This document shows, piece by piece, positions 2,164-36,548 of a stretch of 38,514 nt of DNA. The DNA comes from Fidelibacterota bacterium UBA7303. Lineage in GTDB: Bacteria > Fidelibacterota > Marinisomatia > Marinisomatales > UBA1611. The position numbers and the translations under genes were made by a program. The notes beneath the pieces are model-generated. The model was not told the DNA's origin, did not search any database, and saw only the letters and a program-made list of their open reading frames with translations. The first letter of the stretch is position 1. Each line of letters opens with the position of its first letter. Where the stretch lies: NCBI GenBank assembly GCA_002471805.1, contig DKQR01000066.1, forward strand, positions 1 through 38,514, given 5' to 3'.

Positions 2164-2164
2164 C

Positions 2165-3568: not shown

Positions 3569-4819
3569 TTATAAATCGGCCTTTCCTGTTTTATTTCGTA
3601 ACAAGATAAGAAATAAAAAGATAGCTGCTAAGACAGCTGACACTAAAAGAATGCTGAAAACGGTTCCTGCACCGGACGAATCTAAGATGGAACCCAATAT
3701 AAATTCCTGTACAACGGAACCTACAGCCCCTAATCCATTAATAATTCCGGCTGCAAATGCAGCACCGCGTAAAGTGCTAACTTCAATGGCCCCGGCTCCA
3801 GTCATGAGTGCGTCCGGCCCATACAAAGTGAAACCCACCAAAGCTAGACTTATTCCGAAATAAAGTAAACTCGCAGGTCCATACGTGTATAGCAGCATGG
3901 TGGAAGCAGTCATGGCTAAAATGAAATAAAAACTGATTTTTGCGCGCTTTCCAGAAAAGTATTTATCTGAAATAAATCCTGCTGCAATTACACCGAATGC
4001 ACCTGCGAAATCAAATGCCGTCGAAAGATAACCCGCATCATCCAGAGCAAGCCCGTAATCACGATAAAGAAGAAATGGGGTCCAGGACCAAAGGGCATAT
4101 CGAATGAATTTCACAAAAAAATAGAATCCTCCTACAAGTAAAATATTGGTCCAAATGGCAGAACTCCATCCTAAATCTCTCTGTACATTCTTTTCTATTA
4201 TGGATTTATTTTCACTGGAATCCACAAGCCCAAACCCAACATCTTCAGGTTTATTTCTTTGATTAAATAAAAAGAAAATCCAAACACCTAATAGAATAAT
4301 AGAGCCAGCCCAGAACGACCATTGAATACCCCATCTTGCCAATACCCAAGCTGCAAGTCCGCTGGCCAGCACACCGCCAATTTGATAATTTGTTGCCCAA
4401 AATCCCATAACCGTTCCACGTTCTTTTCGGCTAAACCACGGAGCCATGGCGGCCACATTATTAGACCATCCTGTGGATTGAGCGAAACCATTAATCATCA
4501 TTAACAATGAAAAGGTTATCCAGGAGTTCGTTATACCAAATAAAAAGTTAACCGCAATAGATACGGCCATTCCGAACAATAATAAGATTCGTGGCCCCCA
4601 CTTCGACCCAACCCAGCCCATAATAAATTGACCAATAGTATAGGCAACTAAATAGGCTGATCCAATGAACCCGAGTAAAGATGGATCCCAGGACAGTTCT
4701 TCAGCTAATGCTGGTTTGGCAATAAAGAATGGTTTTCGACAAAAATAAAATCCCGCATAGGATAACCATGTGGATGCGAAAATGCGATAACGCCATATTG
4801 ACTGAGGTGAATAAATCAT
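3569..4819 (-). CDS. MFS transporter, organophosphate:phosphate antiporter (GlpT/UhpC-like, OPA) family
   Basis: This is a 416-aa polytopic protein with about 12 hydrophobic segments. Its N-terminus, WLSYAGFYFCRKPFFIAKPAL...GFIGSAYLVAYTIGQFIMGWVGSKWGPR, parallels the GlpT/UhpC N-terminal signature as I remember it. It is the first gene of the minus-strand operon. Confidence 0.75.
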   Translation of the reverse strand: MIYSPQSIWRYRIFASTWLSYAGFYFCRKPFFIAKPALAEELSWDPSLLGFIGSAYLVAYTIGQFIMGWVGSKWGPRILLLFGMAVSIAVNFLFGITNSWITFSLLMMINGFAQSTGWSNNVAAMAPWFSRKERGTVMGFWATNYQIGGVLASGLAAWVLARWGIQWSFWAGSIILLGVWIFFLFNQRNKPEDVGFGLVDSSENKSIIEKNVQRDLGWSSAIWTNILLVGGFYFFVKFIRYALWSWTPFLLYRDYGLALDDAGYLSTAFDFAGAFGVIAAGFISDKYFSGKRAKISFYFILAMTASTMLLYTYGPASLLYFGISLALVGFTLYGPDALMTGAGAIEVSTLRGAAFAAGIINGLGAVGSVVQEFILGSILDSSGAGTVFSILLVSAVLAAIFLFLILLRNKTGKADL

Positions 4820-5562: not shown

Positions 5563-5566
5563 AAAT

Positions 5567-7894: not shown

Positions 7895-7898
7895 AAGA

Positions 7899-9086: not shown

Positions 9087-9099
9087 TGGGAGAATTTTC

Positions 9100-10092: not shown

Positions 10093-10101
10093 GGGCCAAT
10101 T

Positions 10102-11667: not shown

Positions 11668-11682
11668 ACGACAGTTGACAGA

Positions 11683-12960: not shown

Positions 12961-12976
12961 AAAACAGGAGAACATC

Positions 12977-14380: not shown

Positions 14381-14400
14381 TACTAAAAAAAGGGTATACG

Positions 14401-15009: not shown

Positions 15010-15065
15010 TCGGCAATGAATACATCTGTGGTATCTAATTTCAAGATTCTAAAATTGGATATAAA

Positions 15066-16430: not shown

Positions 16431-16439
16431 AGGATAATT

Positions 16440-20386: not shown

Positions 20387-20400
20387 TTAGGAATACACAT

Positions 20401-21078
20401 ATGAAACCCAGCTTTAGATATATAAAATATGTAGTAACAACACTCGTTTGGATAATAACCTTTCTTTTTTCTCAAGAATCAAAATTGGTTCCTATTAAAC
20501 TTGAATTGCCAAAACCCATGTTTATCGGAACACCCCAAAACCTAAATGTGAAAAATCTTCAAAAACCACTGGGCAAACCCAGACCGGCGTTTCTGGCCCC
20601 GGTCGGCACCAAAAATATCGCACTGGGAAAACCAATTTACAGTTCCGATGATTTTCCTGTGATTGGAGAAATAGAAATGATTACCGATGGCGATAAAAAT
20701 GCAGCTGAAGGTAGTTTTGTAGAATTGGGTCCATTCCTACAGGATGTGACGATTGATTTAGAGGAAAATTATAAAATATTTGCCATTGTTTTTTGGCATT
20801 ACCATAAACAGGCTCGGGTGTATTTTGATGTTGTGGTTCAAACAGCGGATAATAAGGATATGACAAAAAATATTCATACACTTTTTAATAATGATATGGA
20901 CAATTCGGCCGGATTTGGTGTAGGAAATGATATGCATTATGTGGAGACATCCGAAGGAAAACTCCTCGATGCCAAAGGTGTCACCGGGCGTTTTGTGAAA
21001 CTTTACAGCCGGGGCAACACCAACAACGATTTGAATCATTATATTGAAGTAGCTGTATACGGCCTTCCTTTGAAATGA
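20401..21078 (+). CDS. Secreted discoidin (F5/8 type C)-like carbohydrate-binding domain protein
   Basis: This is a 225-aa ORF with an AGGAA ribosome-binding site upstream. The N-terminal hydrophobic segment is VVTTLVWIITFLF. The segments NIALGKPIYSSD, MITDGDKNAAEGSFVELGP, VTIDLEENYKIFAIVFWHYH, GRFVKLYSRGNTNND and IEVAVYG follow the discoidin jelly-roll pattern. Confidence 0.6.
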   Translation: MKPSFRYIKYVVTTLVWIITFLFSQESKLVPIKLELPKPMFIGTPQNLNVKNLQKPLGKPRPAFLAPVGTKNIALGKPIYSSDDFPVIGEIEMITDGDKNAAEGSFVELGPFLQDVTIDLEENYKIFAIVFWHYHKQARVYFDVVVQTADNKDMTKNIHTLFNNDMDNSAGFGVGNDMHYVETSEGKLLDAKGVTGRFVKLYSRGNTNNDLNHYIEVAVYGLPLK

Positions 21079-22628
21079 TTTCCGATCGTTACGGAACGAC
21101 CATTGTTCTGTCGATTTTCATTATAGCGGGTTTTTTTCGCTTCACAGATCTCTCCAGCCGGCCTATGCATGGCGATGAAGCCATCAATGCAGTCAAACTT
21201 TCCGGTGTAGTTGAAACTGGCCAATTTGATTATAAACCAACCCAGCATCATGGACCGCTTTTATATTTTACGGGCTACTTGTTTTCAGCTTTCCATGGTT
21301 TGGATGGCATTCAGGATTTCAGTGAAGAGTTTCTCCGGAGTGTTACTGGTTTTGTAGGCATCCTGCTTTTATGGATTGGGTTCACTTTTAAAAAATCACT
21401 TCAGAATAATGTATTATATCTTGCTTTTGGGTTGATGGCTATTTCACCATCGTTGGTTTTTTATAGTCGGTTTTTTATCCATGAGATTATTATCGTTTTC
21501 TTCAGTTTAGGAATGATCGCAAGCGGATATCAATATTTGAAGACTGAAAAGTCGTTGTGGCTTGCATTGACTGGAGTGGCACTGGGATGTATGATATCTA
21601 CAAAGGAAACGTGGCCTCTATTTTTGATTGCTATGGGAAGTTCAGCCGCAATATTATACTTCCATAAAGGTGTAAAACGGCTTATTTCATTGAAACATGG
21701 TATAACAATTGCTGGGATTGCAGTGGCAACAACCTTCCTTTTTTATTCTGACTTCTTCCGGGATATAAATAACAGTACTGATGCCTTTCTGGCTTTCAAG
21801 CCATATCTGGAAAGAGTATCATCCGAAGGAATTCATAACCATCCCTGGTATTTTTACCTGAATATCATTTTCCCGCTTGGCCATTCCGGAAGTTGGCTGC
21901 ATCTGGGAGAGGGTTTACTCTTCTTAGTTTTTATCTTCAATTTGCCGCTGATGCTTCGTTCTGAAAAACAACCTATAACTATACAGTTTTTGTTTTGGTA
22001 TTCTTTGGTTCTATTATTTGTGTTTTCAGCAATTCCATACAAAACACCCTGGAACATTTTAGGTATCATGCCTGGAATGATTATTGTGTCTGCGAATACA
22101 ATTGTCAATCAAGTCTATAAATTGAATCAAAAAATATTGGGAAACATATTTATTGTTTTATTGGGTGGTTTACTTATGTTGCAGTCCTATTCCTATAATT
22201 TCAAGAATGAAGCCAATCCAGCAAATCCATACGTCTATGCTCATCCCACAAAGGATATTTTCACGATAGAAACTAAAATTCATGACATGGCTAATGTTTT
22301 AACTAATGAAATTGATTTTTCCGTTTTTGTCATGGCAACCGGGGATGACTATTGGCCCTTTCCGTGGTATTTACGGGATATGGATAATGTTGGCTATTGG
22401 AATCATGTTCCGCTAGATGTGGGATCAGCATCAGTTGTATTCGTTTCGTCTGACTTAACAGATAATTTAGTCAAAACAATTTATGAAAAGGCCGAACCTG
22501 GAATGTCATCCTTGCTCATTCCATTGTTTGATGAAATGATGGAACTTCGTCCCGGCGTTGAAATTAGCGGGTACATCAAAAAGGACGTTTATGATTTATA
22601 TGAGCGTTTAAGTTCACATGACGGATAA
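21075..22628 (+). CDS. Polytopic GT-C-fold glycosyltransferase (TIGR03663 / PMT_2 / ArnT-like)
   Basis: This is a 517-aa ORF that overlaps the upstream gene by 4 nt (ATGA). It has about 11 hydrophobic helices followed by a soluble C-terminal domain. The first extracytoplasmic loop carries RPMHGDEAINAV, an acidic DE motif typical of GT-C enzymes, followed by YKPTQHHGPLLYF. Confidence 0.65.
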   Translation: MISDRYGTTIVLSIFIIAGFFRFTDLSSRPMHGDEAINAVKLSGVVETGQFDYKPTQHHGPLLYFTGYLFSAFHGLDGIQDFSEEFLRSVTGFVGILLLWIGFTFKKSLQNNVLYLAFGLMAISPSLVFYSRFFIHEIIIVFFSLGMIASGYQYLKTEKSLWLALTGVALGCMISTKETWPLFLIAMGSSAAILYFHKGVKRLISLKHGITIAGIAVATTFLFYSDFFRDINNSTDAFLAFKPYLERVSSEGIHNHPWYFYLNIIFPLGHSGSWLHLGEGLLFLVFIFNLPLMLRSEKQPITIQFLFWYSLVLLFVFSAIPYKTPWNILGIMPGMIIVSANTIVNQVYKLNQKILGNIFIVLLGGLLMLQSYSYNFKNEANPANPYVYAHPTKDIFTIETKIHDMANVLTNEIDFSVFVMATGDDYWPFPWYLRDMDNVGYWNHVPLDVGSASVVFVSSDLTDNLVKTIYEKAEPGMSSLLIPLFDEMMELRPGVEISGYIKKDVYDLYERLSSHDG

Positions 22629-23526
22629 AATTGCTGTTCACGGAATTGATTCAAACTGGCTAGAGGAGCACGACATTCACCGGTTTTCCCATAAAGCCAT
22701 GGCAACAGTTTTCGATATATTGATTTATCATGATAACTATTCTTATGCCCTTCAGGCCGCAACGGAATCTTTTGCGCAATTAGATTTACTGGAGCAGGAT
22801 TTAAGCCGGTTTGTGGTAAACAGCGACATTTCCCGGATCAACCAGTTAAAGCCAGGAGAATCCACAGTAGTTGGAGTAGACTCTATGGAATGTTTAGTGA
22901 TTTGTCAGAGGCTTCAAAGCGAAACTAATGGCGCATTTAATCCCACCGTTGGGAAAGTCATTGATCGTTGGAAAAATGAAACTGAATCGGTAATTAATAT
23001 CAATGAAAATATTGGTAATCTGATTCTGGATTCAAAATCATATACAGTCACCTTAATTGATAATCCCATTTCCATTGATTTGGGTGGTATCGGCAAAGGA
23101 TATGCCTTAGATAAACTCAAAGTGACATTTCAGGAATGGGGTATTGAAACCATATTAATCAATAGCGGGAGGAGTACCTTTTTAGCCGTGGAAGCTCCGA
23201 AAGACGAAACAGGTTGGCCATTAACAATTTCCCATCCATCTGATAATAGTGAATTAAAACGAATTTCCTTAAATAAGAGTGCAATTGCCGGTTCTGGGAT
23301 AGAAAAAGGGAATCATATTGTTTCACCCTCAAATTATCAGCCGGTTCAAAACAGATTGGGTGCCTGGTCTGTGGCGAAAACAGGTGCGGAAGCAGATGCT
23401 CTTTCCACATCATTTATGATTATGAGCGAAAGGGAAATAATAGATTATATGAACCATCACCCGGATGTGGGTGGAATGGTTTTTGATGAAAAAGGAAGTA
23501 TGAGGAAATTTGGTACTTTCGAATAA
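22618..23526 (+). CDS. apbE: FAD:protein FMN transferase (ApbE family)
   Basis: This is a 302-aa ORF that overlaps the upstream gene by 11 nt. It has the ApbE hallmarks HKAMATVFDI, SDISRIN, NGAFNPTVG, DLGGIGKGYALDKL and AIAGSG. Confidence 0.85.
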   Translation: MTDKIAVHGIDSNWLEEHDIHRFSHKAMATVFDILIYHDNYSYALQAATESFAQLDLLEQDLSRFVVNSDISRINQLKPGESTVVGVDSMECLVICQRLQSETNGAFNPTVGKVIDRWKNETESVININENIGNLILDSKSYTVTLIDNPISIDLGGIGKGYALDKLKVTFQEWGIETILINSGRSTFLAVEAPKDETGWPLTISHPSDNSELKRISLNKSAIAGSGIEKGNHIVSPSNYQPVQNRLGAWSVAKTGAEADALSTSFMIMSEREIIDYMNHHPDVGGMVFDEKGSMRKFGTFE

Positions 23527-24405: not shown

Positions 24406-25803
24406 TTATTTATATGCTATATCCCAGGATCCGTCAGCAATAGGGATTGCCATTCGATTTGTTCCCATTTTATAGTTATGTACGGTAAGCCATTTTGATT
24501 TTTTTGAATCTGTAACTTCAATGGATTCGAGGACTTTTTTATTTATTGTTACAGGGAAGTGATGAGTTAACTTTTCCAATTTTAATGGTAATTCTTCTGG
24601 ATTGTATAGGTTTTTCATTTCCTCATATATCCATTTATCCACCCATAATTCCAACTCCCTTTTAAACATAGGGATTTGATCAATTCGTTTTTCTAATGCA
24701 GTCTTGGCCAGAAAATCATCTCGGATAAACCAGGCAATCTCTAAATTAAATTTTTCTTTCATAGCATTTTTATTACGATAGTCGTTTCGTAGTATTGAAA
24801 AATCAAACGAATTAACAAATTCTTTAACAGTTATTTCACCATTAATATAGGTTATAAGCGGTTTATTAAACTCATTTTCCACTATTGAATTAGATTGACT
24901 TTCTCTTAAATATTCGACAAATAATTTTGACTTTGCAGAATTATCATTTAGCCATGCCCAAACCACTTCAGATAGGATATTAAACGTTTCCGATTTTGTA
25001 CGTACATCTTTTGGAGTCATAAGCGAAGAAACATATTCTGTTGTGGCTGCAGAAAGTTTATTCTGGAATAAGATCTTTTTAAAAGAGGCTGATTTTGAAT
25101 GATATTCTGATTCTAAAACACCTGCTCTGCGAATATCTAATACTTGAAAAATCCAATATTTTTCACCAAAAAGAATTGGCAAAGAAACTTTATTAATAGG
25201 CAAGTCTCGGATTTTTTCCATTAGTTCAGGAGGTAGGTTAAGCCAGGACATATAACCTGTTTCAAATTGATCTGAAGTAAGATTGATATTAGAATTGTAG
25301 GAAATAATATTTTCAAGAAATAATTTAAATCCCACCTCATTAATATTTTTGTGTGCTCTATTTGCCATTTCCAAATTTTGTTCATTCCAATAACGTAGAT
25401 TGAAATCCACTTTACTTTTATTGATGGCATCTTTTATTTCATTTTCAGAGATTAAGATTGAATTGTTTATTTCTTCTTGGATAAGATATTCAATTAATAA
25501 ATCCTGAGTTAAATTTGCTTTTTTATTTTGGATACTTTTCTGCTTATGGATGTTTTTTGCATATCCATCTAATGATAGAAGTTTTTCATTGATCATGGCA
25601 GTAAGATAATTTCTTTTGGGATTCCCAACTGATTTTAAATGGGCAAATCCAAACTCATAATTGGCAAGAAATTCTTCAGATGTAATCACAGCTGGTCCAA
25701 TTTTCGCAACGATATTATTCCCGATATTTGTTTCCGCTAAAGGACTGCCACATTTAAGAAAAATAAGACATGAGAGAAATAAGAAATAGATTTTATTATT
25801 CAT
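24406..25803 (-). CDS. Secreted hypothetical protein with a SurA-N-terminal-like chaperone segment (function uncertain)
   Basis: I place the start at ATG 25803 (MNNKIYFLFLSCLIFLKCG, a signal peptide), 5 nt after the stop of the upstream gene. The track start at 25860 would overlap that gene. The segment VAKIGPAVITSEEFLANYE resembles SurA/PpiD N-terminal domains. I saw no rotamase motif. Confidence 0.35.
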   Translation of the reverse strand: MNNKIYFLFLSCLIFLKCGSPLAETNIGNNIVAKIGPAVITSEEFLANYEFGFAHLKSVGNPKRNYLTAMINEKLLSLDGYAKNIHKQKSIQNKKANLTQDLLIEYLIQEEINNSILISENEIKDAINKSKVDFNLRYWNEQNLEMANRAHKNINEVGFKLFLENIISYNSNINLTSDQFETGYMSWLNLPPELMEKIRDLPINKVSLPILFGEKYWIFQVLDIRRAGVLESEYHSKSASFKKILFQNKLSAATTEYVSSLMTPKDVRTKSETFNILSEVVWAWLNDNSAKSKLFVEYLRESQSNSIVENEFNKPLITYINGEITVKEFVNSFDFSILRNDYRNKNAMKEKFNLEIAWFIRDDFLAKTALEKRIDQIPMFKRELELWVDKWIYEEMKNLYNPEELPLKLEKLTHHFPVTINKKVLESIEVTDSKKSKWLTVHNYKMGTNRMAIPIADGSWDIAYK

Positions 25804-25808
25804 ATTAT

Positions 25809-26849
25809 TTAAAATACCAGCCCTAAAGAAATCCGTGATGTATAACCCAAAATGCCCCAATCTGCATAAGCGTAATCAAAACGCATAACCCACCGCTTTT
25901 GTAATAACATGTCAATTCCTACACCCAGTGTTAATCCATTTTCTGCATTTTCTTCAAACAGGTTATTATAACCTGAACGAACAAAAAACATATCCTTGAA
26001 TCCAAGCTCAACACCCAGATTAATACTTTCGGTTGTATTGGTAGGGTGCAAAACATCTGCTGTCGTTAGGAGGCTTCCAATCGAACCCAGTTTCTTTTTG
26101 TGTGAAATACCCGCTCTAAAAAGAATGGGCAATGGGTATGCATTTGTTTTGAATGTGCTGGGTATTCTATCTACATTTTCATTATCTTCATCAGGGTCAA
26201 CTGTTGTATCTAGATCACGACCAATGAGTTGTAATTCTGTCCCAAAATTGCTGATGCTCATCCCTATTTGCAGTCCATCAAGTCTAGATTGATAAAAAAT
26301 ACCTATATCTACTGCCCCGGCATTACCTCGAGAATTCCAAATTCTTTCCTCAATGTATTTTAGAGACAGACCAAATGAGAATCGGTCAGTAAGGGCCTTG
26401 GCAAGGGTTAAAGCCAGTGAGTAATCCCCCGCTGAATACATTTCTCCCGTTCCTTCGGGCCTGTTTACTGTTCGGACAGGCTGATCATCGTAATTTAGTC
26501 CTACATAATTAAATCCTATTGTTGATCTATAAATAGATAATGGAATAACAACACCAACAAAGTCGTGGCTGGAATTGATAAACCACTGATTGTGCATGAA
26601 CTCCACCTGAGTACCTTGCAACCAGACAATGTTGGCCGGATTGTAAGAGAGTGCAGCAGGACCATCTATTACAGATGTATAGGCACCACCCATACCCAAA
26701 GCTCTGGCGCTTACTCCAATTTCAAGAAAAGAAGCAGCTGTTGTACCTACGCCGGTTACTTTTGTTTCGAATTGCGCAGAAACAGGTCCTGCTGTAAAAA
26801 TTAGCATAGAAATAATGATAACTGAATGTTTACTCATATTATAATTCAA
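25809..26849 (-). CDS. PorV/PorQ-family outer-membrane beta-barrel protein
   Basis: This is a 346-aa ORF. A signal peptide is followed by AASFLEIGVSARALGMGGAYTSVIDGPAALSYNPANI, which matches the PorV-family N-terminal signature. The rest shows alternating beta-strand-like sequence, and the protein ends in an aromatic residue (LGLVF). Confidence 0.6.
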   Translation of the reverse strand: MNYNMSKHSVIIISMLIFTAGPVSAQFETKVTGVGTTAASFLEIGVSARALGMGGAYTSVIDGPAALSYNPANIVWLQGTQVEFMHNQWFINSSHDFVGVVIPLSIYRSTIGFNYVGLNYDDQPVRTVNRPEGTGEMYSAGDYSLALTLAKALTDRFSFGLSLKYIEERIWNSRGNAGAVDIGIFYQSRLDGLQIGMSISNFGTELQLIGRDLDTTVDPDEDNENVDRIPSTFKTNAYPLPILFRAGISHKKKLGSIGSLLTTADVLHPTNTTESINLGVELGFKDMFFVRSGYNNLFEENAENGLTLGVGIDMLLQKRWVMRFDYAYADWGILGYTSRISLGLVF

Positions 26850-26860
26850 TTATTAATATA

Positions 26861-29800
26861 TTACTTGATAACCGCAAAACGCCCTCTTTTAATTCCATAT
26901 TCAGGTGCATCAACTACATAGAAATAAATTCCATGAGATATTTCCAAACCATCCTTTGTTCGCAAATCCCAGCTTTCTCTCGAATTATTTTCGGTTGTAA
27001 AATGATCCAGTTGACGAACCAATTTTCCTGAAGCAGTAAAAATAAATATTTTGCAATCTTGGGGTAAATTGACAAAATCAATCCGACGGTCTCCCCGGCC
27101 TTCTTCCTGATTGATGACTTTACGCTCTAACGGGTTTACTGAAACATAGGGGTCCGGAACTACATAAATATTATCCATTTCTTTTTTGGCAACATTAGCA
27201 GCTATATAATTCCCTGAGACTTCAATTTCAAAAACATCATTTCTGTCAAATGGCTTGTTGGTTGTGATGGAGTAGATATCTCCACTCTGGGGAAGAGTCC
27301 TTGATGCTGAATCAGCATTGTCTGGATAAGTGAACAACCATTGCCATAAAAAGATTTCATCTTCAATATTATTTACAATTTTGATTTGATCGTTTTCTTT
27401 TAGATAAGGCCTGGTAGGGTCAGTTGGCCAGACAAGTGGAGTATAAATATAGTCAACCTGGAATTCTTCTTCAGAATTTGTTACATCCCAGATCTGAAAA
27501 TTTGTAACAGTGGGTAACGAAATTACGGATGTATCTGCTCCCACTTCACTAACGCGAATTTCATAATCCCGCCTTATCTGTAGACCTCCGTAATCACCCG
27601 TTATATCTGTGGCTGTTAATGAAGAAGTCCCCTGTATCCAGTTAGCCTCTTTCATCCCAGTACCATCATTATGCAGAATAATGTGGATTCCTTCATAAAT
27701 AAATTCTTCAGCCAAAGGGTTCGAATTCGGATCTGTCACTATACCCAGCAAACTATTTTCAGTGGTAGAATACAGTGACATTTGGGAAGTCTGCCCCGTA
27801 AAGTGAGTTGAATCATGCTGCTCAAAACTACCATCATCGTCAAATTGAAGACTGTATCTATAGCCATCCTTTATTTCATTTGGATTGTTGATTATTATTT
27901 CTATGGTCCCTGTCCCAATTCCGGAAACTTTTTCTATTTGAAAGTCTGGTATAACCCAACCAGCCGGTGTTTCTTCAGGAATAACAGCTACGGTATTTCT
28001 GTCGAAGGCAATTGCCCTTCCTAATGGATCAATTTGAATATTGGCACTGCATTCAGTGGGAGAAATATCACTCAAGTTCTGTAATTCTGAGAGGCTTGGA
28101 TAAAAAGATGAATGATGGCCTCGATCAACAGCAACAACAGCATAGTAATATGTCCGGCCATTGGTTACACTGGAATCCACGTAATAATGTTTTAAGTCAC
28201 TGTCAGTCCCCATATTGTATGAAACTCCCAAATCACTATCACTACCCATTTCACCACCAATGTTAACTGGATGAATTCCAGCTAAACCATTCTTAATGTC
28301 ATAAATCGCTTCAGGTTTAAATAGCAAAGGATTACCAAATGCATCTGTAATTGTTTTGATTTCTGTAAACGTTGGGTCGGTACTTTTATATACGTAATAC
28401 GCTTCGAAATCCTGGCCATAAATTGGGTCGCGGGATTTTTCTGCATTTTTATCCCAGGATAAAATTACTTTTTCATCATACCCGGCGGCTTTTACAATCG
28501 GAGTGCGAGGTGGTTTCGAAAAGCTGTAATCCATATCATAAATCATCTGCATGGTACGTTTATTTCGCAAAATATCATCCTGATCATTGCCAAACAGCAG
28601 TGCAATTGCATATCGATGTATCTTTTCATCCCCGGCGAATTCTACAAAACCGCTTCCATATGTCCAGGCGATATCCCGCTGGTATCCTGGTCGTATGGTA
28701 TATGTTCCAGGCTGTATTTCTACATCCCAATATTGCTCATCATCGGCCATTGTGTTATCTACATCGCGTAAATACCAGGATGTTAGTCCAACCTGGTCAG
28801 ATTCATCATTATCTGTAAATTCAAAATCGGGTTCCCCGATATCAGGGATACCATTAGCTTCTCCGATGTCAGGACCAGTATAATCATCATGATTAGGGCC
28901 CAATCCATCAGCCCCTAGATCGTCGTTCAATGGTTCAATATCTAATTCGCCGTTTTCATTAATATCTTCTCCGGGATCCAGTTCCAGATTGTAATTCAAA
29001 TCCTCACTGTCCCAAACACCATTATTATTTTCATCCTCCCATGCTGACCAGTCCCCATCATCGTCGATACCATTATTCTGGCTTTCATCTATCAAACCAT
29101 CCTCATCATTATCGATCCCATCGTTGGCTAAACCAGGACTTTCAAAGAAACCAAATCCAAAATAGCCGGTTGGTAATCCATTGTTAGCTATCCCGGTTCG
29201 ATTCCAGGCATACGTAATGTCGGATAAGTTATCAAAATCTGCATCATCACCACTGAGGGATCCACCCATATCAGGATCTACATACATTCCAACAATACAT
29301 TTATTCAGATCCTTGCCCTCGTTAGTAATATCATAAATCCCTATCAATATATCTTCCGCTAGCCTAGCACTCCATTGATACGTACGTACATCCACTTTTA
29401 TTCCCAGCCCTCTTCGACCATCGGGAAAATCCAATGAATCGCCTTCTATAGGGTAGTATTCAAACTCATCATTTTCCCTATCATCCATTGCGTAAAATGA
29501 TTCTTGATCTGCACGCATGTAGGCACCATATTCACCATTCCAGCGTCCAGCTCTTACACCGGGTCTTGCTTCACCAATTTCACGATCATCTCCCGGATAA
29601 GTTTGGGGAGGCCAATATTCCGGCCAGGTTTCCTTACGGTGACTAATGGCAAACCAGCCCACTTCATTTTGCATACTGATATCCAAAATGCCATTGCCAT
29701 TGAAATCCTCAGCCATCTGCAAAAGACCATCCCCCTCGCCTGAATCGAGAGTATTGGGGATTCCGTCTGTACCTACATCTTCATTTATTCCATAAATTTC

Positions 29801-30313
29801 CGGAACTTCATATGCTTCAGGCTGATCCATATTGAAATATTTTGGCAGGGGCATAAAAGCATAGAAATGAGATAAATCGTTTGATGCTTCGGCAGAAGAA
29901 CGTCGATAATTGTCTGAAATAATATGGATTGTATCTCCATGAGCATCTTCAACTTCTGCGGCAATAAAAAATACCGTTCCATGGATGTATGATATCTTTT
30001 TAGGACCCTTTGGCCAGGAAATAGTTGGACTGCCAGAGACATAATGGTGGGAAATAAGTCCGGAATTGGTAATTCCGCCCGTAATGAGATTTCCATCATG
30101 GATAGTATAACGTAAATATTTATCATGCCCCTCATCATCGGCAAATAACTTCCTATTTTTAAAATCCCGCATCTGACTTCGTGTGCCTTGCTGCTGATTT
30201 ATTAGATAATCATATTTGTCTTTTTCCTGCGCGAAAGATGGAAAAAAGAATAATAGAATAATTGTTATACCAAAAAAATAGCCTTTTAAAAAATTATGAT
30301 TATTATGTATCAT
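26861..30313 (-). CDS. 1150-aa secreted/surface protein with acidic Ca-binding-type repeats, an FN3-like module and a T9SS-type (FlgD-Ig-like) C-terminal sorting domain
   Basis: The signal peptide is GITIILLFFFPSFAQ. An Asp-rich block contains DNDEDGLIDESQNNGIDDDGDW. An FN3-like segment reads KVILSWDKNAEKSRDPIYGQDFEAYYVYKS. The C-terminal 65 aa, DCKIFIFTASGKLVRQL...WDLRTKDGLEISHGIYFYVVDA...RFAVIK, match the T9SS CTD / FlgD-Ig pattern. Confidence 0.75.
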   Translation of the reverse strand: MIHNNHNFLKGYFFGITIILLFFFPSFAQEKDKYDYLINQQQGTRSQMRDFKNRKLFADDEGHDKYLRYTIHDGNLITGGITNSGLISHHYVSGSPTISWPKGPKKISYIHGTVFFIAAEVEDAHGDTIHIISDNYRRSSAEASNDLSHFYAFMPLPKYFNMDQPEAYEVPEIYGINEDVGTDGIPNTLDSGEGDGLLQMAEDFNGNGILDISMQNEVGWFAISHRKETWPEYWPPQTYPGDDREIGEARPGVRAGRWNGEYGAYMRADQESFYAMDDRENDEFEYYPIEGDSLDFPDGRRGLGIKVDVRTYQWSARLAEDILIGIYDITNEGKDLNKCIVGMYVDPDMGGSLSGDDADFDNLSDITYAWNRTGIANNGLPTGYFGFGFFESPGLANDGIDNDEDGLIDESQNNGIDDDGDWSAWEDENNNGVWDSEDLNYNLELDPGEDINENGELDIEPLNDDLGADGLGPNHDDYTGPDIGEANGIPDIGEPDFEFTDNDESDQVGLTSWYLRDVDNTMADDEQYWDVEIQPGTYTIRPGYQRDIAWTYGSGFVEFAGDEKIHRYAIALLFGNDQDDILRNKRTMQMIYDMDYSFSKPPRTPIVKAAGYDEKVILSWDKNAEKSRDPIYGQDFEAYYVYKSTDPTFTEIKTITDAFGNPLLFKPEAIYDIKNGLAGIHPVNIGGEMGSDSDLGVSYNMGTDSDLKHYYVDSSVTNGRTYYYAVVAVDRGHHSSFYPSLSELQNLSDISPTECSANIQIDPLGRAIAFDRNTVAVIPEETPAGWVIPDFQIEKVSGIGTGTIEIIINNPNEIKDGYRYSLQFDDDGSFEQHDSTHFTGQTSQMSLYSTTENSLLGIVTDPNSNPLAEEFIYEGIHIILHNDGTGMKEANWIQGTSSLTATDITGDYGGLQIRRDYEIRVSEVGADTSVISLPTVTNFQIWDVTNSEEEFQVDYIYTPLVWPTDPTRPYLKENDQIKIVNNIEDEIFLWQWLFTYPDNADSASRTLPQSGDIYSITTNKPFDRNDVFEIEVSGNYIAANVAKKEMDNIYVVPDPYVSVNPLERKVINQEEGRGDRRIDFVNLPQDCKIFIFTASGKLVRQLDHFTTENNSRESWDLRTKDGLEISHGIYFYVVDAPEYGIKRGRFAVIK
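26864..27058 (-). other. T9SS-type C-terminal sorting domain coding segment of the 1150-aa protein
   Basis: This covers the last 65 codons. They fit the pattern (I/V)x(I/V)(F/Y)..xGxLVRxL...W(D/N)....G..(V/I)..G(I/V)YFY, and the protein ends in K. Confidence 0.6.
28790..29135 (-). other. Acidic DxDxDG-type (thrombospondin-type-3-like) calcium-binding repeat region within the 1150-aa protein
   Basis: The translation reads NDGIDNDEDGLIDESQNNGIDDDGDWSAWEDENNNGVWDSEDLNYNLELDPGEDINENGELDIEPLNDDLGADGLGPNHDDYTGPDIGEANGIPDIGEPDFEFTDNDESD. The coordinates are approximate, mapped from the GAT/GAC-rich antisense DNA. Confidence 0.5.
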
Positions 30314-30330
30314 ATAAATACACTCAATTA

Positions 30331-33213
30331 TCAGAACTTTATTTCTATTCCAATCTGGACTTTTCGAGGGGAAGAATAATAATCCGGTCTTACATTTACT
30401 TCTTCCATGGTAAAATGACCTTCCTGTTCAAGTCTCTCTTTATCCAGCGCCTCATTTTCCGGCAGTCTGGCTATTTGATCTGCTCTGCCGGTGGACGAGT
30501 GGACGGATTCATGATTAAGATGGTCTAACAAATTGTCTGTTTTAAAAAATATCACCGAATTGAAGTTTAGAAATTTTAAGTGTTTTTTTGCTTGAATATC
30601 TGCACTCCAGCGAATGGGTTTACGCCCTAAATTTCTGTATTCCCGCTCGGCAATATCATACCGTTCAACAAATGACGGGCCATATGGTGTACCACTATTT
30701 AAAAAGGATATGAGACCCACACTCCAATCATTTGAACGGCCTATATTTACATACAGGTTGAGTGTGTGGCGCTGATCCCAGTTCAATGGCAGTACTTTCC
30801 GCTCAACAAATTCCACATCTTCTCCGCCAATTTGTGTTGCTGTTTGAATGAGAAATAATGACTGTGGATCAGAAGAACTCCCATTAGCATATGAGAAAGT
30901 GTAATTAAGTCCTCCGGTCACTAAATCATCGCCTTGACTCAGTAATCCAATTGAAATGCCCTTTGTATTTCCGTGGTCTCGGTTGATAAACCGGTTATAT
31001 CCAACGGCATCGATGGTCGAAACACGTTCAATTCCTAGAAGGTTCCTAAAGTCCTTATAAAAGGCTGTAATGTCCATGGCAATGGAATTTGTAATCCCTT
31101 GCTGGATCCCGATTTCGTAGGCAACTGTTTTTTCCGCTTCCAAATTCGAGTTACCTAAAGTACGTCCTTCTAACTGGAGTTTGTTAAGGACATATAATGG
31201 TTCATTATACATATACTGAAACGCAGGCATTTGAAAGAAATGGCCGTAGGATGCATGAAATGCCCCCCGGTCAGAGATGGGGAAGGAGAGACCCAACCGA
31301 GGGCTGATTTGATATTTTGTGGATGCATCCTTCAGGTTTTGGGGTGACCCAAGATTTTTTGCTTCCGTACGCAGTTTGATTGGATAAACTTCGTTAGGAA
31401 GAAATGCATCCAGTCGGATTCCAGCATTAATAATGATTTCTCCCAATTCTATTTTATCTTGAATGAAGAGAGCCGCTTCCTGCGGTTCAATTGTATAATC
31501 ACGCCATAGGGTGTATTCCGAATCGGCAATAGCTACGTAACGAACTGTATCATAGATACTTTCCCAATCTTTCCAGTAGTCCGCTAAAGTGTCCCAATAA
31601 GCGTCAAACATATATTCATTACCGTCAAGGTCTGATTGATTGGGCCATTGGGAATTTTCCCAGATAGTTGTTTGTCGAACTCCCCGGGAATAGGTATTTA
31701 CCCTATGTTGTTTAAATTCAAATCCTGCCTTAATAAAATTCAGTCGGTTGATTTGCCAATTGATATCACCTTTAACAAGGAACAAATCCCGGTATCCTTT
31801 TCCATCTTTACCGGTGTAAAAGGCATCCGTATTTCCCAGTGAAAACCCGCTGGCGCTGGCACCTATGGGTTGAATGCCAGAATCACCAGGGTAAAATGCA
31901 ATTTTATTATCTTTACGGTAATAGGATTCACTATCATTATGTTGGTAGGAAAGGATGAGATTATAAAAGAAATCTTGTGCTGGGAAATGTTTGAAGGATA
32001 TAATATGAGATCCAGACCAACTGTTACTGGTTGATGCTCCGTCAGGTTGGTACCGGCGCCAACTATCACCACCATAACTGTGAGAAGATGACCCAAAGAA
32101 CTGGTAAATAAAGTTAACTTTTTCCGTTGGAAACCAAGATAACTTTGCGGTAAAGGAATTACTTTGGCCAGTTTGAAGTGGCCCCAGCGCCCCATCTCCT
32201 GTTTTCAGTGAATCGGGAATTAAAATACCCTGAGCAGCAGCATATTCTTCAGGATTGTGCTCCCGAAACCAGCGTTCATAGGCAGCAATCTTCCAACCAT
32301 CCAGGGTATTATAGCGGCGCTCATACCATTCCTTACTCTCCCAGTTATTTCTTCTACCGGAAATAAAAAAACCTAGATTATCAATAAGAAATGGTCCTGA
32401 TAAAGTAAATTGTTGATCACTTTCACTGAATGGGTTAAAATCATTTATACCGAGAAAAATTTCTGATTTGTTGCTGACCCAATCACCCATATATGTTTTA
32501 ATCGTTCCGTGGAATTCACGTTCAATACGTTTGGTAACAATGTTAATAATCCCTGATTGGGCTGAACCATATTCCGCATTGAAGGTCCCGCTAATCACTT
32601 CTAATTCTTCCACCATAGAATTTTCAACGGGAACATTATTGCCTCCACTTTGACTAAATGAATTTGTAACTGGAACACCATCAATGAGGTAAGCAACCTC
32701 CCGGGTACGGCCACCTCGAAAATGTAACCCCCCAGAATTGACCACACCGGGCTGTAGTGAGATAACTTCTGATATTTCTGTTACTGGCATCTGGTCAACA
32801 ATTTCAGAAGTTAATTTGGTAGATGAATGAGTACGGTCTCTTTCGATTACCGGTCGTTCGGCTTTCACAATAACTTCATTCAAGGCAACAGTCTCTTCGA
32901 TTAATTCCACATTTTGAGTTGTTGTGCGATCTACATGAACTTTTAGATATTTTATACGGTAAATTGCATATCCAATATAATGCACTTGCAATTCATAGGT
33001 GCCGGGGGGAACATTAATTATGCTGTAATAACCTTCTTCATCAGTCGTTGCGCCTAGAACTGTCCCTGCCAGTATAACATTTGCGTTAGTGAGGCTCCCA
33101 CCTGTAGCGGTATTTATGACTCTACCAGAAATTTTTCCCGTTGTTCCACCAAAAATCGGATAGGCACATACAATCAATACTAACAAAATATTATTGATAA
33201 GATTCTTTTTCAT
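30331..33213 (-). CDS. TonB-dependent outer-membrane receptor with an N-terminal CarboxypepD_reg-like domain
   Basis: This is a 960-aa ORF with a signal peptide. The CarboxypepD_reg segment is GKISGRVINTATGGSLTNANVILAGTVLGATTDEEGYYSIINVPPGTYELQV. The plug region contains EISEVISLQPGVV...HFRGGRTREVAYLIDGVPV. A long beta-barrel follows and ends in the aromatic terminus GIEIKF. Confidence 0.85.
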   Translation of the reverse strand: MKKNLINNILLVLIVCAYPIFGGTTGKISGRVINTATGGSLTNANVILAGTVLGATTDEEGYYSIINVPPGTYELQVHYIGYAIYRIKYLKVHVDRTTTQNVELIEETVALNEVIVKAERPVIERDRTHSSTKLTSEIVDQMPVTEISEVISLQPGVVNSGGLHFRGGRTREVAYLIDGVPVTNSFSQSGGNNVPVENSMVEELEVISGTFNAEYGSAQSGIINIVTKRIEREFHGTIKTYMGDWVSNKSEIFLGINDFNPFSESDQQFTLSGPFLIDNLGFFISGRRNNWESKEWYERRYNTLDGWKIAAYERWFREHNPEEYAAAQGILIPDSLKTGDGALGPLQTGQSNSFTAKLSWFPTEKVNFIYQFFGSSSHSYGGDSWRRYQPDGASTSNSWSGSHIISFKHFPAQDFFYNLILSYQHNDSESYYRKDNKIAFYPGDSGIQPIGASASGFSLGNTDAFYTGKDGKGYRDLFLVKGDINWQINRLNFIKAGFEFKQHRVNTYSRGVRQTTIWENSQWPNQSDLDGNEYMFDAYWDTLADYWKDWESIYDTVRYVAIADSEYTLWRDYTIEPQEAALFIQDKIELGEIIINAGIRLDAFLPNEVYPIKLRTEAKNLGSPQNLKDASTKYQISPRLGLSFPISDRGAFHASYGHFFQMPAFQYMYNEPLYVLNKLQLEGRTLGNSNLEAEKTVAYEIGIQQGITNSIAMDITAFYKDFRNLLGIERVSTIDAVGYNRFINRDHGNTKGISIGLLSQGDDLVTGGLNYTFSYANGSSSDPQSLFLIQTATQIGGEDVEFVERKVLPLNWDQRHTLNLYVNIGRSNDWSVGLISFLNSGTPYGPSFVERYDIAEREYRNLGRKPIRWSADIQAKKHLKFLNFNSVIFFKTDNLLDHLNHESVHSSTGRADQIARLPENEALDKERLEQEGHFTMEEVNVRPDYYSSPRKVQIGIEIKF

Positions 33214-33270: not shown

Positions 33271-35085
33271 TTATTTTTCATCCTTTACGCAACGAAAGCC
33301 AACTTTATACCCTACGATTTTTGAATCAGGAGGCAGGTAATAACGGTGTGCACAACGAAAAAAGCTGCGATTATTAAACTCTGCACCACCACGAATCACT
33401 TTATATTTTTCACCATATGCGGGATTGGAAACATTATTTCCAGAATAGGGATTATACCAGCTGGATGTCCATTCCCATACATTTCCTGCCATGTCCAAAC
33501 AACCGTATGGACTTGCCCCTGGTGACACCTTTCCCACCGGTGATGCATCATCCCAGGCGGTCATCGTAACATCCCAATAATTACCCCAGGGGAAAATCCG
33601 TCCATCAGTACCCCGGGCTGCTTTTTCCCACTCTTCTTCATTAGGCAAACGTTTGCCTGCCCATGTAGCATAGGCATCGGCTTGCTCCCAGGTGACCAAA
33701 GCAGGATTAATTTCTTTCCCTTCCGGAAAAGTAAAACTTGAATCAAAATTTTTGTACTCATCATTGGTCACTTCAAATTTGTCAATCCAAAAACCCGTTA
33801 ACAATACTTCGTGTTGAGGACTTTCATCTTTATCACCCATATCACTGCCCATAATAAATGCCCCTGCAGGAACGAATACCATTTTTTCATTTTTAATTTC
33901 AGGCTTATTTAATTTTCCATCTGCGGTGATAAATCCATGGTAGCGTCCAAACCAGTATGCCCAAAGAAACTTTCGCGGTGATGACTGCCAGTAAGCTAAC
34001 AAGCGGACAGGACCGGATGTTGATCTCATAAAGGTAACACGCTTATTTTTTGTTATTTCAAATTGATTCAGATCATTTAATGTGTTCTGATCGATGGATT
34101 GCGATCCAGGATATAAAGCTTGGCGAATAAAATCATATTCGGCATGGTTTGCATCTTTTAATAAGATCCAGTGTCTTTCAAGGGAAGAACGGTAATGTTC
34201 TAGGATAATTGGATCATGCTCATATTTATGAAGCATTCGCAGTGCATCAATGGCAAGTCCGTCATCACTGCGATTAATTGCGTACTTTGGTGATACGACT
34301 TTTGCTAAAGCGGCCTCTTCATGGAATTTAAATTCATTAATCAGCTGATTATATTTAACAGCATATTTTTCCTGACGCGTTATATGGTGGGCAATTTTAA
34401 GATTGCTCAAAGACAATAAGGCATTCAATGATTCATGAGGAATGTTCGGACTGAGGTTGCCCCATAAAGTCATTTTCCCATCAACATCAATGATACGCAT
34501 ATCATTATTAAGGATCCGGCTCATCACCCGATCCACTGCTTTCATGATTTTATTTTTCTCCACATCATCTGCAATAAAATCATAGTAGTCGGTCAGCCCA
34601 ATGATCCAACCGTTAAGCTGATCCACGCTCAAATCACCGAGCCAGCGATAGTCAGGCATAACGATTGACTGATGCCATTCATGGGGGAAGAAGAATGCTT
34701 CTTCATCAATGGTTGGGTTGATGCTGTGCTTAAACGCCCGTGCAATAACTCCGGGCGTACCAGTGACTTTTTCAAGTCTTAATAAAGCATGCATTGACTT
34801 TTGTGCATTCTGCTTAGCTAGATTATCACCGGTGGCTGCATAACGAAAACATTCAGCGGTTACATATCGTCCTGTATTAAAACAGAAATCTTCCTGAGTT
34901 GATGCATCGAACTCTTTTGGACCTTCAACCACCTGAATAATTGTAGGTACAAGCTGGCCTTCCCGCATATGGTCGCGCTGGATGATTTTTTCAAAACGCA
35001 ATGCTTTCTGAGTCAGGGATTCCTGAGCAGTGACTCTAGTAATAAAGGAAATAATTGCTAAAAGAAGAAAAAATGTGTTTTTCAT
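33271..35085 (-). CDS. Secreted two-domain protein: unknown ~390-aa N-terminal domain fused to an FGE-sulfatase (SUMF1/EgtB/PvdO-family) domain
   Basis: This is a 604-aa ORF with the Shine-Dalgarno-like AAGGTGA at 35090-35096 (minus strand) and the signal peptide FFLLLAIISFITRVTAQ. The C-terminal ~200 aa contain MVFVPAGAFIMGS, ESPQHEV, FWIDKFEVTNDEY, WAGKRLPNEEEWEKAARG, FPWGN, GNVWEWTSSWY and VIRGGA...RCAHRY. These are hallmarks of the FGE-sulfatase fold. Confidence 0.75.
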   Translation of the reverse strand: MKNTFFLLLAIISFITRVTAQESLTQKALRFEKIIQRDHMREGQLVPTIIQVVEGPKEFDASTQEDFCFNTGRYVTAECFRYAATGDNLAKQNAQKSMHALLRLEKVTGTPGVIARAFKHSINPTIDEEAFFFPHEWHQSIVMPDYRWLGDLSVDQLNGWIIGLTDYYDFIADDVEKNKIMKAVDRVMSRILNNDMRIIDVDGKMTLWGNLSPNIPHESLNALLSLSNLKIAHHITRQEKYAVKYNQLINEFKFHEEAALAKVVSPKYAINRSDDGLAIDALRMLHKYEHDPIILEHYRSSLERHWILLKDANHAEYDFIRQALYPGSQSIDQNTLNDLNQFEITKNKRVTFMRSTSGPVRLLAYWQSSPRKFLWAYWFGRYHGFITADGKLNKPEIKNEKMVFVPAGAFIMGSDMGDKDESPQHEVLLTGFWIDKFEVTNDEYKNFDSSFTFPEGKEINPALVTWEQADAYATWAGKRLPNEEEWEKAARGTDGRIFPWGNYWDVTMTAWDDASPVGKVSPGASPYGCLDMAGNVWEWTSSWYNPYSGNNVSNPAYGEKYKVIRGGAEFNNRSFFRCAHRYYLPPDSKIVGYKVGFRCVKDEK

Positions 35086-35235: not shown

Positions 35236-36501
35236 CTAATTCGAATTCATTTTAGATGGAGCAGGTGATTGTTTTATTAATTGTATCGCTTCCTTTATAT
35301 ATATTTCACCCGTTTTTTCACCAAGGCCGGTTTGAGTGACGTAATTATATATTTTGAAGCTATTCCAATCTACTTTTGATAAAATATATCCATAAGCATC
35401 ATTGGTTAAACCGAATAAAATATTGTGTTTTCCATTCATGTTTCGTTTTAAAAAATACCCGATGTTTGGCATTGCTTCCCCCGGGATTGTCAAAATTTGA
35501 GCATTACCTATATTAATCAAATTGATGCGTGTTTGAACTCTTTTCTCATTGTAGATACCAGACAATACAGGCGATTGATTTATTATGGAAAGTATCATTT
35601 CTGATTCAATTGGTAATGAAACATCTCTCCACCCACAAAATATCCTGGGGTTGATCTGCTTCGGAGCATCCCGGATAATCCGAAGTGCCTCATCTGCAAG
35701 AAGGTGACCGATCCGTATACACTCATTCCAAGTCCGGATATCTTTTCCATCCGGTCCTCTGACATCTGCGGTAACCATACCTCCTTGTGCACTATTCATA
35801 AATATTCCTGTTCCACCTCCTTTCATTTCTAATCGATCATAGAGAGGGCCGATTAGATCAGGACTAAGGATATTTTGGCCATCTCCGAGGACCTCTGGAT
35901 GAATTGCATAATTAACCAGCGTGGCTAATGGCACCCCTTCAGAGGTAATTGCTTGAATTATGTGACATCGCGGATCATAGAGTTCATCCGCATAGGAATT
36001 ATATGCAATTTTTCCATAAGCTTCCCCGCTTGCGATTTTTAAAGACACAGGTTCTAGTCGTTTTACAGCTTCCAAAATAGCCTGCGCCGTTTTAGTACAA
36101 ACGAATTCCAAGTATTCAAGATCGGCAGAAGTGCCGCCATCCCCATCGGGAAAGCCGTAGCAATCTGGAGCACTGTGAGTATGTGTTGCTCCTATTAATA
36201 TATTTTCTGGTGGTATTGATGAAACATCCTTACGAACCTTGTCTCCCAATGCACGGGGAAACCCAAGAAAATCTGTACTTACAATTGCTATTCGTGTAAT
36301 GCTATCATCTAAAACGAATGCCCGTACTGTTAAATCACCCTTTTTATTATTTACAGGACGTGATGGTCCTACACCGCCGGACACAGGGAGTAATGGGTCA
36401 GGTGTAACAATTTTTACTGCCATACCTGCTCGAAATTCAGCATGTGCTGACACACATAAGAATAATAAAAAATAAAAGATAATATTGATGCACGTCTTCA
36501 T
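35236..36501 (-). CDS. Secreted hydrolase resembling the neutral/alkaline ceramidase N-terminal domain family
   Basis: I place the start at ATG 36501 (MKTCINIIFYFLLFLCVSAHA, a signal peptide). The track start at 36552 overlaps the upstream gene. The segment FRAGMAVKIVTPDP...GDLTVRAFVLDD..RIAIVSTDFLGF...ILIGATHTHSAPD follows the ceramidase_alk-like pattern. The family call is from memory. Confidence 0.5.
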   Translation of the reverse strand: MKTCINIIFYFLLFLCVSAHAEFRAGMAVKIVTPDPLLPVSGGVGPSRPVNNKKGDLTVRAFVLDDSITRIAIVSTDFLGFPRALGDKVRKDVSSIPPENILIGATHTHSAPDCYGFPDGDGGTSADLEYLEFVCTKTAQAILEAVKRLEPVSLKIASGEAYGKIAYNSYADELYDPRCHIIQAITSEGVPLATLVNYAIHPEVLGDGQNILSPDLIGPLYDRLEMKGGGTGIFMNSAQGGMVTADVRGPDGKDIRTWNECIRIGHLLADEALRIIRDAPKQINPRIFCGWRDVSLPIESEMILSIINQSPVLSGIYNEKRVQTRINLINIGNAQILTIPGEAMPNIGYFLKRNMNGKHNILFGLTNDAYGYILSKVDWNSFKIYNYVTQTGLGEKTGEIYIKEAIQLIKQSPAPSKMNSN

Positions 36502-36548
36502 ATAATTATACAAAATATGTAATTGGTAACCACAACTACAAGACTTAA

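Follow-up and report, generated by a model that had tools for sequence, protein, structure and literature searches.

The contig DKQR01000066.1 of Fidelibacterota bacterium UBA7303 (assembly GCA_002471805.1) carries four closely spaced genes encoding a TonB-dependent transporter (TBDT), a secreted protein of 1150 residues (referred to as the giant protein), a barrel of the PorV/PorQ family linked to type IX secretion systems (T9SS) as well as a SurA/PrsA-like chaperone. We analyzed the stretch of 38,514 nucleotides that contains these genes (the window) together with related loci. A first-pass annotation had read the four genes as an uptake system resembling a polysaccharide utilization locus (PUL), in which a giant surface protein delivered by the T9SS, with its own PorV-like carrier or anchor, acts as the partner of the transporter. 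Our results uphold the association of the genes and the identity of the barrel and lead us to give up the PUL-like label, and we assign a probability of about 0.5 to the reading of the locus as a conserved module for nutrient capture at the outer membrane.

In such a module, the giant protein would be exported by the Sec pathway and then, by means of a divergent C-terminal domain (CTD), through a T9SS-type route. The CTD would not be cleaved but would stay on the dedicated PorV/PorQ-family barrel, thereby fixing the giant protein on the cell surface. Its N-terminal domain (N-domain), with acidic loops and a putative supersandwich fold, would capture a macromolecular substrate together with a fibronectin type III (FN3)-like module, and the substrate or its fragments would be handed to the TBDT encoded immediately upstream, without a SusD partner. 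The SurA/PrsA-like chaperone may assist in the folding or assembly of these large proteins of the outer membrane and cell surface. This reading, which we regard as the most economical, joins two known principles: TBDTs of this superphylum operate together with a ligand-binding partner on the surface, as in SusCD and in the Pus systems of Flavobacterium (PMC8115612), and T9SS proteins that keep their CTD are held by a matching PorV-like barrel (PMC10202324).

The four genes are consecutive open reading frames (ORFs) on the minus strand, the fourth of which extends over 24406-25860 (coordinates of all features are collected in Table 1). Provided that this gene starts at the ATG at position 25803, the intergenic gaps measure 17, 11 and 5 nt, as the first-pass annotation had it. 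Its assignment of the first gene to the CarboxypepD_reg-type TBDTs is likewise borne out, as CarbopepD_reg_2, CarboxypepD_reg (aa 28-116), Plug (aa 125-221; 42.7 bits, cutoff 23.9) and the following TonB_dep_Rec_b-barrel (80.5 bits, cutoff 27) all score above their Pfam gathering thresholds, and the motif EVIVKAE is a candidate TonB box. The SusC/RagA model TIGR04056, on the other hand, reaches only 55.2 bits against a cutoff of 368 and covers no more than aa 27-229. The transporter is not a member of the SusC/RagA family and the locus is not a SusCD-type PUL; the absence of a SusD-like gene noted earlier was confirmed for the ORFs scanned at 23.5-38 kb of the window, and no SusD family member occurs among the called genes of the related loci either. 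Promoter and terminator scans returned counts at the level expected from shuffled sequence (58 vs 53.4; 15 vs 12.1), so that operon boundaries cannot be judged from them. The sole 7-mer enriched upstream of the transporter across 57 loci, GGAATGG, was rejected as a shared regulatory motif because it lies inside upstream coding sequence, where it corresponds to WEW of an FGE domain or WNG of a CTD.

The gene order recurs in related loci, which the first-pass annotation had proposed as a test. Loci were gathered by individual homologue look-ups and by a metagenome scan with alignment, and our own ORF calls were clustered over 93 loci; 45 of these are non-redundant (collapsed at 90% identity) and offer at least 12 kb of sequence. 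The breadth of the set came from the alignment-based metagenome scan, as a single-protein scan of genome contigs gave two loci. Across the 45 loci, which span 39-84% identity and derive from Marinimicrobia, Ignavibacteria, Calditrichota and KSB1, every locus has the TBDT and the giant protein, 44 loci also encode the PorV-like barrel and 29 the chaperone. The TBDT orthologs (51-82% identical) are always encoded first in the triad, and, apart from loci truncated at the end of a contig, nearly all keep the order TBDT, giant protein, barrel. In 44/45 loci the barrel gene lies immediately downstream of the giant gene, an arrangement also found in porU-porV and sprB-sprF, where the barrel gene directly follows the cargo gene. 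The chaperone gene follows directly after the barrel gene or after one to three T9SS-type cargo genes, and among seven loci compared its product is less conserved (24-60% identity) than the three core proteins (49-82%). Found again in 45 non-redundant loci from several phyla of the Fibrobacterota-Chlorobiota-Bacteroidota (FCB) group, this synteny goes well beyond chance.

Related arrangements also exist outside of the orthologous group. A library-wide search with the N-domain of the giant protein retrieved 539 clusters (50% identity level), whose members are for the most part 1000-1300 aa long. When five distant paralogs were looked up, three stood in a TBDT, paralog, PorV-like arrangement, one of these triads being followed by a glycoside hydrolase family 2 (GH2) enzyme and another preceded by a LacI regulator; a fourth paralog had no TBDT and barrel adjacent to it, and the contig of the fifth was too short to judge. 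Since paralogous triads adjoin GH2 or LacI genes, the architecture seems to be a general and diversified platform, and the orthologous group of the window would thus be one conserved branch of it. In four relatives that are 84% identical (loci L012-L014 and L018), a second TBDT paralog of 995 aa from the same BLAST cluster is encoded some 6 kb downstream of the triad (at about 20377-23447) and is followed by a protein of more than 768 aa, which suggests tandem arrays of such systems. One further locus, the JGI metagenome contig Ga0208411_1000402 (L015), encodes a giant protein 100% identical to that of the window within the same flanking gene order and probably either stems from the same population or is itself the source contig.

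The synteny data also bear on the most serious competing explanation, according to which the genes are co-regulated without physical contact between their products, so that the giant protein would be an ordinary T9SS cargo (an adhesin or polymer-binder) with a private PorV-like shuttle and the TBDT would work alone. Such an account would sit well with the other T9SS cargo genes interleaved in these loci, which encode LamG/phosphatase, LTD and PPC proteins with Por_Secre_tail domains, and with the distant paralog that lacks an adjacent TBDT and barrel. The adjacency and order within the triad are nevertheless tighter than the placement of cargo and chaperone genes, and they are repeated in the three paralogous triads, which leads us to regard mere co-regulation as unlikely.

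The window barrel scores 172.3 bits against the NCBIfam model PorV_fam (NF033709, cutoff 90), its residues 36-346 aligning with model positions 1-326, and its sole sequence match in the PDB is PorV of F. johnsoniae (6h3i_F, E 0.0016). The proposed membership in the PorV/PorQ family rather than in the FadL family therefore stands; a FadL identity, for which a Toluene_X match with an E-value of 0.008 could be invoked, was rejected on these scores. The barrel stays far below the cutoffs of the equivalog models for PorV (NF033710, 54.7 vs 250 bits), PorQ (NF033711, 81.9 vs 220) and PorV2 (NF052325, 76.1 vs 325) and, judged by these scores, is a distinct branch of the family and not an ortholog of PorV, PorQ or PorV2. 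Two further leads were discarded: an NCBIfam match that would indicate a BamG-type role (E 9e-5) spans only about 30 residues, and an apparent mention of PorV2 in the literature (PMC10994853) is a typographic artefact.

The tail of the giant protein is modelled as a beta-sandwich at aa 1077-1148. In the window protein, residues 1083-1136 match CHU_C with 16.8 bits (cutoff 27, E 0.0076), and this is the single match, and a weak one, that the entire protein yields against Pfam and NCBIfam, none of whose families is recognized above threshold. Among the CTDs of 42 orthologs, CHU_C is detected in 30 (best E 8e-4) and FlgD_ig in 20 (best E 1.3e-5), in all cases below the gathering scores. The CTD family profile finds only two proteins of the PDB, PorU (6za2, E 0.067) and PorZ (5m11, E 0.33), both weakly, while profile comparison by hhalign with the bona fide Por_Secre_tail CTDs of neighbouring cargo proteins gives a probability of 69% (E 4.3e-5). 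Moreover, one distant paralog of the giant protein carries the Pfam domain Por_Secre_tail itself. We tentatively interpret the tail as a T9SS-like but divergent CTD. Genuine T9SS cargo genes with Por_Secre_tail domains are found on the same contigs as the module in related loci, and SAR406 genomes have been reported to hold many proteins with Por sorting domains (PMC5596340). CTD-retaining T9SS proteins with cognate PorV-like barrels have been described for PorU/PorV, PorZ/PorQ and the type B cargo proteins with PorP/SprF (PMC10202324); since the tail of the giant protein weakly resembles the CTDs of PorU and PorZ, the two T9SS proteins in which this domain stays on PorV and PorQ, respectively, a dedicated PorV-like anchor would fit it.

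As a whole, the giant protein is highly conserved. We found 743 homologs in Marinimicrobia, Ignavibacteria, Calditrichaeota, KSB1 and metagenome-assembled genomes labelled as Bacteroidota; the best 120 of these 743 are 50-97% identical to the window protein and, with one exception (119/120), align over at least 94% of the query. The full-length AlphaFold model (predicted local distance difference test score, pLDDT, 75.9) shows a signal peptide and a disordered linker followed by the N-domain, the FN3-like module, variable beta-sandwiches, a conserved linker and the C-terminal beta-sandwich. A Foldseek search with the whole model was uninformative, returning generic FN3 and macroglobulin chains with TM-scores below 0.1, and the N-domain was therefore modelled separately (pLDDT 81.8, predicted TM-score 0.85). 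This domain, predicted to be a beta-sandwich with long insertions, is 64-70% identical across 45 orthologs, and Foldseek matches it best to beta-sandwich regions at the N-terminus of GH94 phosphorylases, along with GH65, GH116, polysaccharide lyases and mutarotase; the part common to the domain and these matches might tentatively be read as a beta-supersandwich. The acidic repeats described as Ca-binding in the first-pass annotation are plain in the sequence as loops inserted into the N-domain, with repeated motifs of the DxDxDG, NxNG and DDxG type, many invariant D, E, N and G residues and 70% identity. They are modelled as coil (pLDDT 55-75) and have the appearance of calcium-binding loops. 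The FN3-like module noted at the same time is backed by the AlphaFold model, in which aa 601-740 form beta strands, and by Foldseek, whose top matches are FN3 chains. The region that follows is modelled with a pLDDT of 80-90 and is the least conserved, with 41% identity compared to 64-70% elsewhere in the protein. As no recognized catalytic domain was found in the giant protein with Pfam, NCBIfam or the structural models, a role in binding would be favoured over an enzymatic one.

Length, gene order and CTD matches prompted us to consider whether the giant protein could be an ortholog of PorU or PorZ. This was rejected because it has no C25 domain, no beta-propeller and no match to either family; its models show beta-sandwiches only, and the likeness to PorU and PorZ is confined to the CTD. 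The attachment pairs of the T9SS (PorU with PorV, PorZ with PorQ, type B cargo proteins with PorP/SprF) nonetheless offer a parallel to the module, in that a cognate PorV-like barrel retains a CTD protein at the surface (as we infer for the module) and the CTDs of PorU and PorZ weakly match that of the giant protein, but they differ in the properties just listed, in the equivalog scores of the barrel and in that the pair is here joined to a TBDT gene. The same resemblance could be taken further: the locus might encode an export or attachment device, either with a TonB-type barrel acting in secretion, as does the TonB-dependent Oar of Myxococcus, or as a PorU/PorV- or PorZ/PorQ-like complex serving CTD phosphatases. 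The porU-porV-like features (about 1150 aa, CTD matches to PorU and PorZ only, a PorV-family gene downstream, high conservation), the third rank of PorZ in the whole-protein Foldseek search, the Oar-like Pfam family OMP_b-brl_4 in some of the orthologous TBDTs and the CTD cargo genes in the neighbourhood would all be in line with such a device. We consider it improbable, given the missing Peptidase_C25/PorU and PorZ family matches and the lack of a beta-propeller in the model, the location of the sole invariant cysteine of the giant protein in its CTD, the standard Plug and TonB-box-like motif of the TBDT and neighbouring genes that are catabolic or uptake-related (PhnWX, GlpT-like, glycerol-3-phosphate oxidase) and not T9SS core genes.

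The fourth protein had been described as having a SurA-N-like segment, which is substantiated at the level of the family. The window sequence alone gives a weak Rotamase_2 match (17.5 bits, cutoff 27, E 0.007), whereas Rotamase_2 is found in 18 and SurA_N_2 or SurA_N_3 in 9 of 19 homologs, and the family profile retrieves the structures of Cbf2, PrsA and SurA with E-values of 2e-6 to 1e-5. The protein is probably a lipoprotein or signal-anchored. Many homologs begin with a lipobox-like Cys followed by acidic residues (CDD, CDK, CSDEQ; loci L009, L012, L016, L021, L057, L058 and others, and positions 25740-25803 of the window), a start that recalls the surface-lipoprotein export signal of Bacteroidota. 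The BAM complex of Bacteroidota carries surface-exposed prolyl isomerases (PMC12578637), and the chaperone of the module might similarly act outside the cell.

Comparison with characterized uptake systems underlines what is particular about the module. Like the SusCD PULs of Bacteroidota, it places a CarboxypepD_reg-type TBDT beside a large partner, surface-exposed in the PULs and presumably here, with catabolic genes nearby, and it exists in paralogous versions with different enzyme sets (GH2, LacI). It departs from them in having a transporter outside of SusC/RagA (55 bits vs 368) and no SusD, in a predicted all-beta partner of 1150 aa with a T9SS-like CTD in place of an alpha-helical lipoprotein, and in a PorV-family barrel as obligatory third gene. 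In the pairs TbpA/TbpB and HmuR/HmuY, a lipid-anchored surface protein captures the ligand for the TBDT of the same operon; the anchoring in the module would instead be achieved by a CTD on a separate beta-barrel. Full-text literature searches found no published description of the triad, in keeping with the earlier remark that the architecture had not been functionally characterized.

As to the substrate, the gene neighbourhood of the orthologous group points away from carbohydrates. At least one organophosphorus gene is present in 34/45 loci, a strict but raw count for which the phosphatase domain was verified by jackhmmer. The recurrent neighbours include metallophosphatases resembling purple acid phosphatases, often with LamG and Por_Secre_tail domains, PhoD, type I phosphodiesterases, DUF5690 proteins, GlpT/PgtP-like transporters of the major facilitator superfamily (MFS), the phosphonate enzymes PhnW (477 bits, cutoff 296) and PhnX (343 bits, cutoff 220), enzymes similar to glycerol-3-phosphate oxidase or dehydrogenase, GlpK and DeoR regulators. 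Carbohydrate-active enzymes are not among the recurrent neighbours in the 45 loci. The term PUL-like is therefore misleading for this orthologous group, whose neighbours are phosphatase, phosphonate and glycerol-phosphate genes, while GH2 and LacI genes adjoin only the distant paralogous triads. An organophosphorus-bearing compound, such as a polymer with phosphodiester linkages or phosphonate decorations, or else a lipid head-group, would be the most likely substrate of the orthologous group, more so than a plain glycan.

A precedent for such a link exists in Flavobacterium, where the loci PUSI-IV place outer-membrane transporters beside genes for phosphomonoesterases and phosphodiesterases, phosphonate genes and organophosphate transporters of the inner membrane, PUSIII pairs a TBDT with two T9SS-domain proteins, and the PUS are induced by low phosphate (Lidbury et al., 2020, PMC8115612). 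The co-localization with phosphorus genes matches what is seen around the orthologous group in 34/45 loci, and the module would accordingly be an analog of the Flavobacterium PUS that uses a T9SS-delivered partner. The differences are that PusCD contain SusD-like lipoproteins and PUSIII the lipoprotein FI, that the parts of the PUS report considered here (PMC8115612) mention neither a PorV-like barrel nor a giant conserved partner, and that in the window the phosphorus genes lie about 17-21 kb away.

The same neighbourhood could also be read as lipid head-group salvage, with the barrel as a FadL-type channel for hydrophobic products (fatty acids or lysolipids from phospholipids), the TBDT taking the polar head-group polymer and the giant protein being a surface binder of lipid or polymer; however, even though PorV belongs to the FadL superfamily (PMC12578637), there is a weak Toluene_X match, paralogous barrels match UPF0164 and the glycerol-phosphate, phosphonate and ceramidase-like genes would suit it, we hold this to be quite improbable for a barrel whose sequence is firmly PorV/PorQ (172 bits), whose only solved relative is PorV and whose gene always comes after one with a CTD-like domain at the end of its product.

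A number of observations weigh against the nutrient-capture module, with the T9SS-delivered partner and organophosphorus substrate proposed for it. The CTD of the giant protein does not reach any curated threshold, and no core T9SS genes were seen in the 38.5-kb window or in the 10-kb flanks of the related loci. The Foldseek matches of the N-domain are weak, with a best E-value of 3e-4 and TM-scores of 0.2-0.3. The count of 34/45 loci with organophosphorus genes was taken without a genome-wide background control. In the lineage of the window itself, among relatives of 81-84% identity, no phosphorus gene lies within 10 kb of the module; upstream, its nearest relatives encode DUF3748, ceramidase-like and FGE-sulfatase-domain proteins, and the GlpT-like MFS transporter and the metallophosphatase of the window are about 17-21 kb away from the module. 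The phosphorus link is therefore strong for the orthologous group and weak for the window locus.

A wider generalization suggests itself, which we put forward tentatively and with distinctly less confidence than the module itself: FCB phyla outside of the Bacteroidia may use an undescribed class of TonB-dependent uptake complex, in which a T9SS-delivered capture subunit is coupled to the transporter via a dedicated PorV paralog. This would be a counterpart to SusCD, comprising many paralogous systems and one ancient orthologous group for organophosphorus polymers. To our knowledge, SusD is absent from the Marinimicrobia (SAR406), Ignavibacteria and Calditrichota, which are abundant degraders. 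The proposal, if true, would provide a testable model for the capture of polymeric substrates by TBDTs in these phyla, would give the PorV family a role that goes further than shuttling in secretion and, if it holds for the orthologous group, would point to an unrecognized way of obtaining organic phosphorus in sediments and in the interior of the ocean. Since the core proteins are 49-82% conserved across the phyla compared, they are usable as a clean genomic marker.

Table 1. Positions of the module genes, of the regions of the giant protein and of further genes in the window
Feature	Position	Strand	Basis or remark
GlpT/PgtP/UhpC-like MFS transporter, organophosphate:phosphate antiporter family	3569..4819	-	about 20 kb from the module
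SurA/PrsA-like parvulin-type chaperone, 465 aa	24406..25803	-	family profile
PorV/PorQ-family outer-membrane barrel, 346 aa, proposed CTD anchor	25809..26849	-	NF033709
Giant secreted protein, 1150 aa, conserved TBDT partner	26861..30313	-	homologs and AlphaFold
Putative divergent T9SS-type CTD beta-sandwich, aa 1077-1150	26864..27085	-	CHU_C, FlgD_ig, PorU/PorZ, hhalign
Variable beta-sandwich region, aa 741-1035	27209..28093	-	conservation, model
FN3-like beta-sandwich, aa 601-740	28094..28513	-	AlphaFold strands; Foldseek
N-domain of giant protein, aa 60-600	28514..30136	-	beta-sandwich with long insertions; most conserved part
Acidic D/N/G-rich loops inserted in N-domain, aa 395-510	28784..29131	-	sequence, conservation
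TBDT, 960 aa	30331..33213	-	signal peptide, CarboxypepD_reg, Plug, beta-barrel
Secreted 604-aa protein with C-terminal FGE-sulfatase fold	33271..35085	-	57 nt upstream of the TBDT

Several other genes of the window deserve mention. Next to the TBDT gene lies that of a secreted protein whose C-terminal 200 aa match the Pfam family FGE-sulfatase (E 1.8e-43) and whose N-terminal part of about 390 aa belongs to no known family. The FGE-sulfatase fold is also used by GldK/PorK and GldJ. This protein is confined to the closest Marinimicrobia loci (cluster 23, six loci) and is a possible lineage-specific member of the operon. Further upstream of the module and on the same strand, 35236-37964 encode two proteins that are syntenic in the closest relatives, one a beta-propeller-like DUF3748 protein and the other, of 438 aa, showing a weak neutral-ceramidase N-terminal match (E 6e-5).

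At the opposite end of the window, four minus-strand genes (256-4819) encode a haloacid dehalogenase (HAD)-type hydrolase, an iron-type alcohol dehydrogenase with a best match, below cutoff, to 4-hydroxybutyrate dehydrogenase, an aldehyde dehydrogenase of the succinic-semialdehyde type and the GlpT/PgtP-like MFS transporter. The latter matches the NCBIfam models TIGR00881 (E 1e-60) and glpT (E 3e-50), both below their cutoffs, and shares a BLAST cluster (cluster 5) with the MFS transporters beside the triad in 15/45 loci. On the plus strand, 5408-7894 encode an 828-aa protein with Pur_ac_phosph_N and Metallophos domains and an N-terminal jelly-roll like those of glycosidase accessory domains; unlike the triad-side phosphatases in other phyla, it carries no T9SS tail. 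The plus-strand genes at 7830-17786 comprise four Gfo/Idh/MocA oxidoreductases, three of which carry RRxF leaders of a twin-arginine-like type, together with a xylose-isomerase-like TIM barrel, an MFS transporter, a GlcNAc-2-epimerase-like protein and a 3-keto-disaccharide hydrolase (DUF1080), a set that resembles a pathway for oxidative glycoside cleavage. At 18083-19963, the plus strand encodes a protein of 626 aa that contains several CxxCH motifs and weakly matches multihaem cytochromes (c7, c3, MtrC-like); the gene of a small membrane protein follows.

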